64,000 nucleotides of DNA. Source: Octopus vulgaris. Its lineage: Eukaryota. Position 1 is the stretch's first letter. Each line of letters begins with the position of its first letter. The stretch is taken from NCBI GenBank assembly GCA_951406725.2, contig OX597818.1, positions 79,546,001 through 79,610,000 of the forward strand, in the 5' to 3' direction. Of the stretch, positions 20,826 through 23,259 are shown one piece after another. Position numbers and translations under genes: made by a program. Under the pieces are notes generated by a model, which did no database searches, was not told the DNA's origin, and saw only the letters and a program-made list of their open reading frames with translations.

Positions 20826-21202
20826 CTAGCAGTATCACCTGGCGTTGCTCAGATTTGTTTCGACCCTTTAGAATTGGAATTTTTGAAAAGTAAAAATTTT
20901 GCATTATGTTCTTTAAGTGAACATTTTTCTGGTTGAAATACACCGAAAAATGGCGACACAGCAGTCAAAAAATCGTAAAAGATAGGGATTTTCATAGAAA
21001 AAAAGCACCTTTTTTTATGTAAATAATATTTGGTGTTAACATGGTCCGATTTGAATTTTTCTTCTACGGAAGGAAGAGCATGCCTTCTTCTATCATACTC
21101 TCAACTTTGGTCAACTTGCGCAGCAGAGTCTCAGAGATAGCGTTAGTTGAAGGCTACCAATCCTGCCATACACAGACAACTTCAGCTTTATATATAGAGA
21201 GA
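20826..21202 (-). mobile_element. Non-autonomous Helitron
   Basis: Minus strand begins TC(TCTCTATATATAAAG), ends with hairpin CTGAGCAACGCCAG..CTAG; inserted between A and T with no TSD. Confidence 0.8.
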
Positions 21203-21565
21203 TTAAGTTTGTCCATGCAGTGTATAAATCCTTTCTAGTTGACTAAATACCATTCAATGTCTTCACAATCGACATAGTTGAAAGTGAAATGTAGATTTCT
21301 TTACGTATCTACTATCCAACATGAATTCCAGCGCACGGTCAGATTGAATTCCACGTAACAACATCAATTGCAAACATTTTGGCGATGTTTCTGTTCTGAA
21401 CTGACTCCAGTCTCTAATTATTTATATTCTTGGCGACAAGAATGTTTTTTCCATTCCTCTGATGTTCTGTAAAACCGCATGTGGTATGATTATACAATCG
21501 CTCTTGCAATGTATGCATACATATATGTGTGTGTATGTGAGTGTGTGTGTGTGTGTGTGTGTATG

Positions 21566-21597
<32 letters not shown>

Positions 21598-21604
21598 GGT
21601 GTAT

Positions 21605-21900
21605 GGAGGCGCAATGGCCCAGTGGCCAGGGAGGCGGATTCGCGGTTTCAATTCCTAGACCGGTTGGTGTGTGTGTTTATTGAGCGAAAACACCTAAAGC
21701 TCCACGGGGCTCTGGCAGGGGGTGGTGGCTATCCCTGTTGTACCCTTTCGTCCCAACATTCTCTCACTCTCTCTTCCTGTTTCATGATTAACGCCGCGAT
21801 GGACTGGCGTCCCGTCCAGCTGGGGGGAACACATACGCCACAGAAACCGGGAAACCGGGCCCCTGAGCCTGGCTAAGCTTGAAAAGTGCGCATAAATAAT
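21605..21900 (+). mobile_element. SINE family C variant
   Basis: GGAGGCGCAATGGCCCAGTGG head; GATGGACTGGCGTCCCGTCCAG motif; (AAT)n tail. Confidence 0.7.
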
Positions 21901-21917
21901 AAATATATATATATACA

Positions 21918-22686
21918 TAACTAATGAAGGCTAAAATTTTTTTCGGGAAAAAAATTTTATCAATGGCCAGCATATCAAAAAATACCTTTAAAGGTTATAT
22001 TTATAAATAATTTACAAGATAAGGACAAAAGAAAAATTCTAATGCCAGATATGCCGAAAAAAAGACAAAAATTGTCAATAACCATTATAATTTATGCGTC
22101 TCGAACAAACCGATAGAAATTTCTAAAAAATCCGTTATTACCGTATTGGTCCAATTTCGGGGTTAATTCATAAGAATTTTCCCCTCTTCAGCGATAAATA
22201 CGAGGGATATAAGTGAAATACTTACCCATACCCATGGAAAAAGCATGCACTAAGTCCAGAGCAGACCTAAGTACCCCAAATATATCCAAAATAGAAAATC
22301 TTCGGCACATCTCGAGAAACGTGTGATTCGAACTAGAAACTTTCACAGAGTGAGAGAATCCGGAAGTGAACACTATTCAATTTATAACTAATGAAGGATA
22401 AAATTTTTTTCGGGAAAAAATTTTTATCAATGGCCAGCATATCAAAAAAATACCTTTAAAGGTTAAATTTATAAATAATTTACAAGATAAGGGCAAAAGA
22501 AAAATTCTAATGCCAAATATGCCGAAAAAAAGACAAAAATTGTCAATAACCATTATAATTTATGCGTCTCGAAACAAACTGATAGAAATTTCTAAAAAAT
22601 CCGTTATTACCGTATTGACAATTTTTGTCTTTTTTTTCGGCATATTTGGCATTAGAATTTTTCTTTTGCCCTTATCTTGTAAATTA
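21918..22686 (-). mobile_element. Retrozyme-like element: 1.5 copies of a ~469-nt monomer plus a 74-bp inversion
   Basis: 21918-22148 is repeated at 22385-22617; 22613-22686 = revcomp of 22475-22548; contains an HHR. Confidence 0.75.
22138..22197 (-). ncRNA. Type-I hammerhead ribozyme, intact core
   Basis: Minus strand: TTATCG-CTGAAGA-GGGG aaAATTCttatGAATTaa CCCC-GAAA-TTGG a CCAA-TA|CGGTAA; AUA triplet, cleavage between 22144 and 22143. Confidence 0.8.
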
Positions 22687-22730
22687 TATATATACATATA
22701 TATGCAAATAGATAGATAGATATAAGTATA

Positions 22731-22829
<99 letters not shown>

Positions 22830-23259
22830 TCGCTCCCATTAGTATATAAATGTATTTGTATACGAAACGTCGTAACTTTTAGTGTTGGCTCTGAATTCGA
22901 TGGAAAATCTGTCGAGATAAACTTTAAAATGGGATCATCGCACCGCTAACTCGAAAGTAAGGAACAACATTGACTTGTAAATCTTTAATATAATTGGTAG
23001 TATAATATGGTTACGAAGCGAAACACTGTGCTTCCTAGCATTTAATAATTGCGTACCATCTGCCAGGAAACTTATCTTATGAATAAGTACTTCAATATAT
23101 TTTCAGCTAACGTTTAATCCGAAAGCATTTAGTGAAAAGTTATTTTTTTCTATTTTGATGTCTGAATATATGGATCAAAATTATTTTCCCCCTTATGCTA
23201 AAATTACTCAAAAAATATTTATGCATATAACAAATTTGCTGTGAGGTAAGAAACTTTCG

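Follow-up and report, generated by a model that had tools for sequence, protein, structure and literature searches.

The window, a 64,000-nt stretch of the Octopus vulgaris genome (2.8 Gb, rich in microsatellites), holds an insert of ~700 nt which corresponds to 1.5 copies of a 469-nt unit (Table 1). The direct repeats are spaced by 467, 468 and 469 nt and the copies are 97-98% identical, which confirms the 1.5-copy structure described for this locus in an earlier note. The same note had the repeat copy begin at the base after the predicted AUA cut of a hammerhead ribozyme (HHR), and this is indeed the case; this base (22143, equivalent to 22612 in the 5' copy) is numbered +1 here. Also correct was its observation that TATTG is shared with a 74-nt inverted segment, the overlap being 5 nt long. 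This inverted arm is the antisense of 22476-22548 with no mismatch and one additional A, and the 5' copy agrees with the unit up to 22617. The 469-nt unit contains no credible ORF, and the RT and GIY-YIG ORF between pLTRs that would mark an autonomous Penelope-like element (PLE) is likewise absent. The flanks are (TA)n, and a 13-nt direct repeat (ATATATATACATA) around the whole insert is a probable target-site duplication; in the family, such 13-nt repeats were informative in 2 of 33 rows, the remaining rows being pure TA and uninformative in this respect.

Table 1. Features of the insertion (window positions; signed numbers are positions in the unit)
Feature	Positions	Strand	Remark
Main arm, 1.5 units	21918..22617	-	spans unit -5 to the fixed 'long' 3' end (~+228)
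Full 469-nt unit	22144..22612	-	cut site to cut site; 32% GC
3' partial copy	21918..22143	-	starts at the predicted cut (+1)
'Tail', ~89 nt	21918..22007	-	between the short (~+139) and long (~+228) fixed 3' ends
Inverted arm, 74 nt	22613..22686	+	unit ~+65 to ~+139; its end lies in (TA)n at the fixed 'short' site
Microhomology TATTG, 5 nt	22613..22617	.	common to both arms
Probable target-site duplication, left, 13 nt	21907..21919	.	ATATATATACATA, in (TA)n tract
Probable target-site duplication, right, 13 nt	22686..22698	.	same 13-mer, ATATATATACATA
GTAAGT, 5'-splice-site-like hexamer	22220..22225	-	~80 nt upstream of the cut; alignment columns 388-393
Predicted type I hammerhead motif	22133..22201	-	only complete HHR of this copy

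Several sequence features surround this structure. The GTAAGT hexamer, splice-site-like by sequence alone, is near-invariant across the 469-nt family. Upstream of the hammerhead, CACTTCCGGA is conserved at 22359-22368 (minus strand), which we take to be an ETS-like motif. Together, these two elements suggest a putative internal Pol II promoter and a ribozyme-holding intron, as in PLE pLTRs. Contigs of four sequencing runs presumed to be RNA contain pieces of the family (ends, strand and circles are not readable from contigs), and no joint matching the spliced donor was found in them. The insertion occupies the (TA)n at the end of another dispersed repeat (21601-21900), which has matches in 25 of 251 sequences at 77-88% identity, carries A-box- and B-box-like motifs when read by eye, and is probably a tRNA-derived SINE. 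ARAGORN found no tRNA in 21000-23000, and a bacterial promoter scan, which is of no relevance here, stayed at chance level.

The predicted hammerhead lies on the minus strand, with the CUGAAGA core from C3 (22191) to A9 (22185), stem II at 22184-22159 (GGGG/CCCC plus a 5-bp apical hairpin), GAAA at 22158-22155 and then stem III, the AUA triplet ending at 22144 and the cut being predicted between 22144 and 22143. The CUGANGA, GAAA and NUH core elements of a type I HHR and its stems I-III are all present in a constrained fold (stem I 6 bp, stem II 4+5 bp, stem III 4 bp). For the monomer, this fold has -12.5 kcal/mol and stands 2.7 kcal/mol above the minimum (-15.2 kcal/mol), and the minimum-energy folds have no stem III. 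No Rfam hammerhead family matched at the gathering score or at E<=10, and the long stem II insert may be behind this missing match. After removal of 14 duplicate fetches, the core proved near-invariant in the fetched family copies (G5 153/153, A6 156/156, G8 156/157, A13 178/178; G12 in 169 of 178), and N7 is variable (A 112, G 21, T 14, C 10). Non-majority bases make up a mean of 1.7% at core positions versus 4.4% (median 2.7%) in unit columns 240-469. Across 13 sequences, hand-picked to span subfamilies and one of them lacking the 5' half, 94.9% of stem cells are paired; stem II shows a single clean G-C/A-U swap, and the changes in stem I (U-G/U-A) and stem III (U-A/U-G) are consistent with wobble pairing. 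Core conservation and pairing changes would thus fit selection on the predicted ribozyme. G at H17, found in 9 of 200 copies, would likely inactivate cleavage. Diverged subfamilies (L128, L130, L136, L140, L147, L246 and L248) show an altered stem II, and several of them carry an AUC triplet; L246 and L248 are ~80% identical to the window copy. Given its single complete hammerhead, the window copy could not itself release a monomer.

The repeat is dispersed, and the 21 bases after the cut occur at 257 exact sites genome-wide, with the 9 bases before the cut also intact in 185, and the first 100 of these 257 places were fetched as the family sample. Among the matches listed, 96 of 103 distinct sites (~93%; 115 rows minus 12 duplicates dropped by eye) run more than 5 nt past the cut, and 7, the window copy included, stop within 5 nt of it. 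For the 102 arms reaching +3, truncation proceeds at an even rate between +3 and -446 (0.0033-0.0067 per nt, in bins of 50 nt) with no hard 5' wall, and 6 of these arms pass a second cut site. A pile-up of 5' ends near unit +378 (10 ends in -100 to -81, against 1-7 per 10-nt bin nearby) was considered as a possible transcription start and set aside, as it forms no wall. Arms reach up to 1.8 units, and their halves are near-identical with no recurrent real differences: in 48 arms, tandem halves agree 502 times and differ 78 times at polymorphic columns, where 229 differences would be expected if they were unrelated, and they have 55 rare alleles in common; the commonest differences are alignment artefacts (139-147, homopolymer runs). 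Because truncation is flat past the cut and tandem halves share alleles, the family template was likely circular or multimeric. Both the read-through and the matching halves are accounted for by a template that has no ends, in the simplest case a circle. The earlier note had likewise proposed a multimer or circle-derived template; circle, homogeneous multimer and precise end-to-end jumping all fit these counts. By its composition, a non-coding, low-GC (32%) unit with a predicted type I HHR that elsewhere in the genome occurs as at least 2 consecutive HHR-bearing units (6 copies), the 469-nt repeat can be classed as a new family within the non-LTR retrozymes, bearing PLE integration marks; it is absent from the main texts of the literature searched.

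The strongest alternative, which we nevertheless regard as unlikely, is that the template was an uncleaved linear multimer made by genomic tandem read-through, and that mobilisation does not depend on the hammerhead, as in the PAc assay. The high proportion of listed sites running past the cut agrees with it, and the sections consulted of Frangieh 2024 (PMC11167929) describe HHR mutants that insert normally and no RNA-seq reads ending at the cut. It is difficult to reconcile, however, with the scarcity of genomic tandems, since an exact pattern search recovered only 6 two-HHR copies genome-wide and no arrays of 3 or more units among them, yet arms of 1.8 units have near-identical halves. Moreover, the core nucleotides are kept across subfamilies, and arms starting exactly at the cut are in excess (see below).

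The 3' ends of the arms are informative about priming. They cluster at two sites, at ~+139 (short) and ~+228 (long), ~89 nt apart and both running into (TA)n; BLAST stretches arm ends into the TA flank, to ~149 and ~233. In 134 arms, the ends were long in 65, short in 51 and other in 18, and the tail between the two sites contains a hairpin at ~+185 to +216. Head-to-head pairing, with an inverted 5'-truncated copy and a tail at one end, was found at 46 of 83 loci. Among the 102 head-to-head junctions examined, 66 had both outer ends classifiable, and 65 of these combine a long with a short end (p ~1e-18 versus 50%), one being long+long; the window copy is also a long+short pair. At polymorphic columns, opposite arms are the same in 535 cases and different in 102, against 251 expected. 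The fixed long and short ends, paired in this way, are the 'tail' signature of PLEs. The earlier note had proposed a template switch at the RNA 5' end, and this is not supported: the outer end of the inverted arm lies at the family's fixed second priming site. Such a switch would leave the position of the outer end free, yet the outer ends are fixed and paired, so that separate priming of the inverted arm is likely. A fold-back of the RNA at its 5' end was rejected on the same ground as the source of this arm.

The junction in the window had been flagged as coinciding with the cut and hence as a fossil of ribozyme processing. The cut is indeed one end of the possible range; the 5-nt overlap leaves 6 possible positions for the breakpoint. 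Overlaps of at least 5 nt occur at 15 of 102 junctions versus a 4.4% null, and 6 of these 15 are fold-backs at internal palindromes, enriched by sampling, without which 9 of 96 remain; the overlap of the window copy belongs to this non-palindromic set. Inserts are present instead of an overlap at 62 of the 102 junctions. TATTG is located 5' of the cut, and a cDNA stopped at +1 ends in TTACCG and does not contain it; the overlap would then be a chance match, with a probability of 0.001-0.002. Thus, the junction of the window copy is likely a 5-nt microhomology join, and this single junction is not good evidence of ribozyme processing.

At the family level, the picture is different. Arms starting exactly at +1 number 8 in 7 loci genome-wide (10 raw matches, two being dropped, one as an internal deletion and one for lack of further homology). 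Three control offsets at which a C follows an A (-6, +47 and +10) yielded 2, 1 and 1 junctions (3, 2 and 1 raw matches, two of them judged internal deletions by eye), and 7 of 11 at p=1/4 corresponds to a binomial p=0.0076. Within the bounds set by three controls of unequal capture, the small +1 excess is real, and amounts to ~2-2.4% of arms versus a 0.4% background, with a rough denominator and non-random loci. The excess implies that cleaved RNA ends were likely copied now and then into family arms, which provides weak in vivo evidence for hammerhead cutting; no junction counts at a PLE or retrozyme hammerhead cut were found in the main texts of the literature searched. The junction tabulation that the earlier note had called for is accordingly mixed, with more loci at +1 than at any control offset but with nearly all listed sites running past the cut and with other positions piling up as much as or more than +1: -13, +15 and +19 have 7, 6 and 8 junctions versus 3 at +1 in 74 rows from a pattern enriched for nearby junctions (130 matches, 100 of them listed; the rows cover the first 30, a further 39 regions that looked non-intact by eye, and 3 others). 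Among single loci, L046 (1414-1754) is the best candidate cleavage fossil: the two arms of this insertion, separated by 8 nt, each have the predicted cut as their exact start. Another insertion, L194 (1187-1906), is a multi-switch product of four segments, of which one stops at +2 and another begins at +1.

These counts also bear on whether the window cDNA ran off a cleaved 5' end at +1 and was joined bluntly to the other arm, TATTG being coincidental. We find this improbable, slightly more so than the linear multimer. The 8 arms in 7 loci, against 2, 1 and 1, and the double start at L046 make such an event conceivable, but it requires the chance match, and across the range of blunt-join rates used the rough posterior for a cleaved end at the window copy is 1-11%, rising somewhat if the +1 fraction is closer to 5%. 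The search was designed to find +1 arms with a base other than A at -1, and these arms are therefore silent on overlaps. Copying from self-cleaved RNA, as the earlier note had it, thus finds some support in the family, and is probably wrong for the window copy, where the microhomology join is preferred.

A possible source of the enzyme was sought among GIY-YIG candidates, of which 150 of 6136 at first look were scored, and 46 PLE loci were inspected. The genome contains a young PLE family whose copies are mostly 97-98% identical (L228 1930-7172, also L229-L237), with many intact copies and two ORFs: ORF1, at most 479 aa long, overlaps an RT-GIY-YIG frame of 781 aa. The RT-GIY-YIG frame scores 28.9 bits for RVT_1 (just below the cut-off) and 30.6 for GIY-YIG (above), and it has a CX4CX2C linker, which makes it Neptune-like by the description given in the sections consulted of Craig 2021 (PMC8557442). 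The element has 456-nt pLTRs with a splice-donor-like AAG/GTAAAA, and its ends fall at two sites in (TA)n with 38 nt between them (short at 13 loci, long at 5); at L233 a long copy is paired with an inverted short one. By eye, the long end of this PLE, a hairpin followed by ATCCTA..TTATAAAT, is similar to the long end of the retrozyme unit, and a minimal hammerhead-like motif of the U3-A8 type, a variant named in the part consulted of Cervera 2014 (PMC4209133), was read by eye ~100 nt from the 3' end. No DNA homology of the 469-nt unit to an autonomous PLE was found among the 46 loci; the unit profile hit only an insertion beside one PLE end (L209/L229). There, at L209 2819-3264, a retrozyme inverted pair sits in (TA)n directly at the long end of the autonomous PLE. 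The young PLE, having no DNA homology to the unit, is thus a candidate helper only. That the repeat is instead a pLTR fragment of a still unfound autonomous PLE, left by 5'-truncated insertions, is very improbable: its tail, inverted head and HHR downstream of a splice-donor-like motif would suit such an origin, and 46 inspected loci out of 6136 first-look candidates leave it some room, but in the fetched loci arms running 5' past +229 continue into the same unit and wrap to a second cut site, and the unit has no ORF.

Taken together, we consider it quite probable that the window element is a copy of a non-LTR retrozyme mobilised in trans by a PLE RT/GIY-YIG enzyme priming on both (TA)n strands. 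Rare two-hammerhead copies would be transcribed and self-cleave into 469-nt monomers, which would be ligated into circles. A PLE protein might then bind +139 to +228 and make a staggered cut in (TA)n, which fits the 13-nt flanking repeat. The long site (~+228) would be used for priming by one target strand and the short site (~+139) by the other, so that two cDNA arms arise head to head; the pattern is observed, and its chemistry is presumed. Synthesis passes the position of the cut site and, in the observed pattern, stops at ~0.4-0.5% per nt, giving arms of 0.1-1.8 units. The two free ends would finally be end-joined, often with inserts or microhomology. In the window copy, the long arm would have run at least to -5 and annealed via TATTG/CAATA. 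About 2% of family arms likely run off freshly cleaved linear RNA, and the window copy is probably not among them.

A broader reading is possible, and we offer it tentatively. Every inverted insertion might use both internal RT starts, one per target strand, in an obligate asymmetric dimer reaction; internal priming would permit an end-less circular template, the +1 spike would be an in vivo fossil of cleavage, and the family would record the whole cycle of a retrozyme run by a PLE. If so, the +1 spike would record what in vitro work and RNA-seq on a PLE missed. The strict long/short pairing leads to a testable claim on the use of the two start sites by the PLE enzyme.

Other retroelements offer partial parallels. 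In R2 elements, the full-length 5' end usually arises from the cut of a 5' self-cleaving ribozyme; both systems share the idea of a 5' junction set by ribozyme cleavage, but here only ~2% of arms end at the cut. In L1 twin priming, both target strands prime and a 5' inversion results, whereas here both priming sites are fixed and the arms copy overlapping sequence.

Closer relatives are the metazoan non-LTR retrozymes, defined in Cervera & de la Pena 2020 (PMC7229834), where PLEs are named as candidate helpers; the phylogeny in Li et al. 2026 (bioRxiv 10.64898/2026.07.22.740005) supports a PLE origin. As described in the consulted text of both, these elements are non-coding and low in GC, with a canonical-type type I hammerhead and partial tandems, and PLE helpers and a circular template are proposed for them, as for the 469-nt family. 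By the same sources, the unit differs in its length (469 nt versus 170-400 reported for invertebrates), and the family shows PLE tail and inverted-head marks and no long arrays; in the main texts of the two papers, 'tail' occurs 0 times and 'inverted' 0-1 times.

The other side of the comparison is with EN+ PLEs, for which the tail arrangement is described in Arkhipova 2013 (PMC3846280) and Craig 2021 (PMC8557442), and traced to two internal RT start sites, on both strands, in Frangieh 2024 (PMC11167929). In the sections consulted of these papers, EN+ PLEs share with our family the partial tandem with an inverted 5'-truncated copy, the tail at one end, target-site duplication around inverted structures, microsatellite targeting, an HHR near the 3' end and internal initiation at two sites. 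By those accounts, our family is unlike them in its 469-nt unit with no ORF, its tail of ~89 nt versus the 30-40 nt reported, a hammerhead fuller than the minimal PLE motifs (4-bp stem III) and no homologous autonomous partner among the 46 PLE loci. Mobilisation of animal retrozymes by PLEs has so far been drawn from co-occurrence and phylogeny; in our study, the anatomy of the insertions itself bears the PLE signature.
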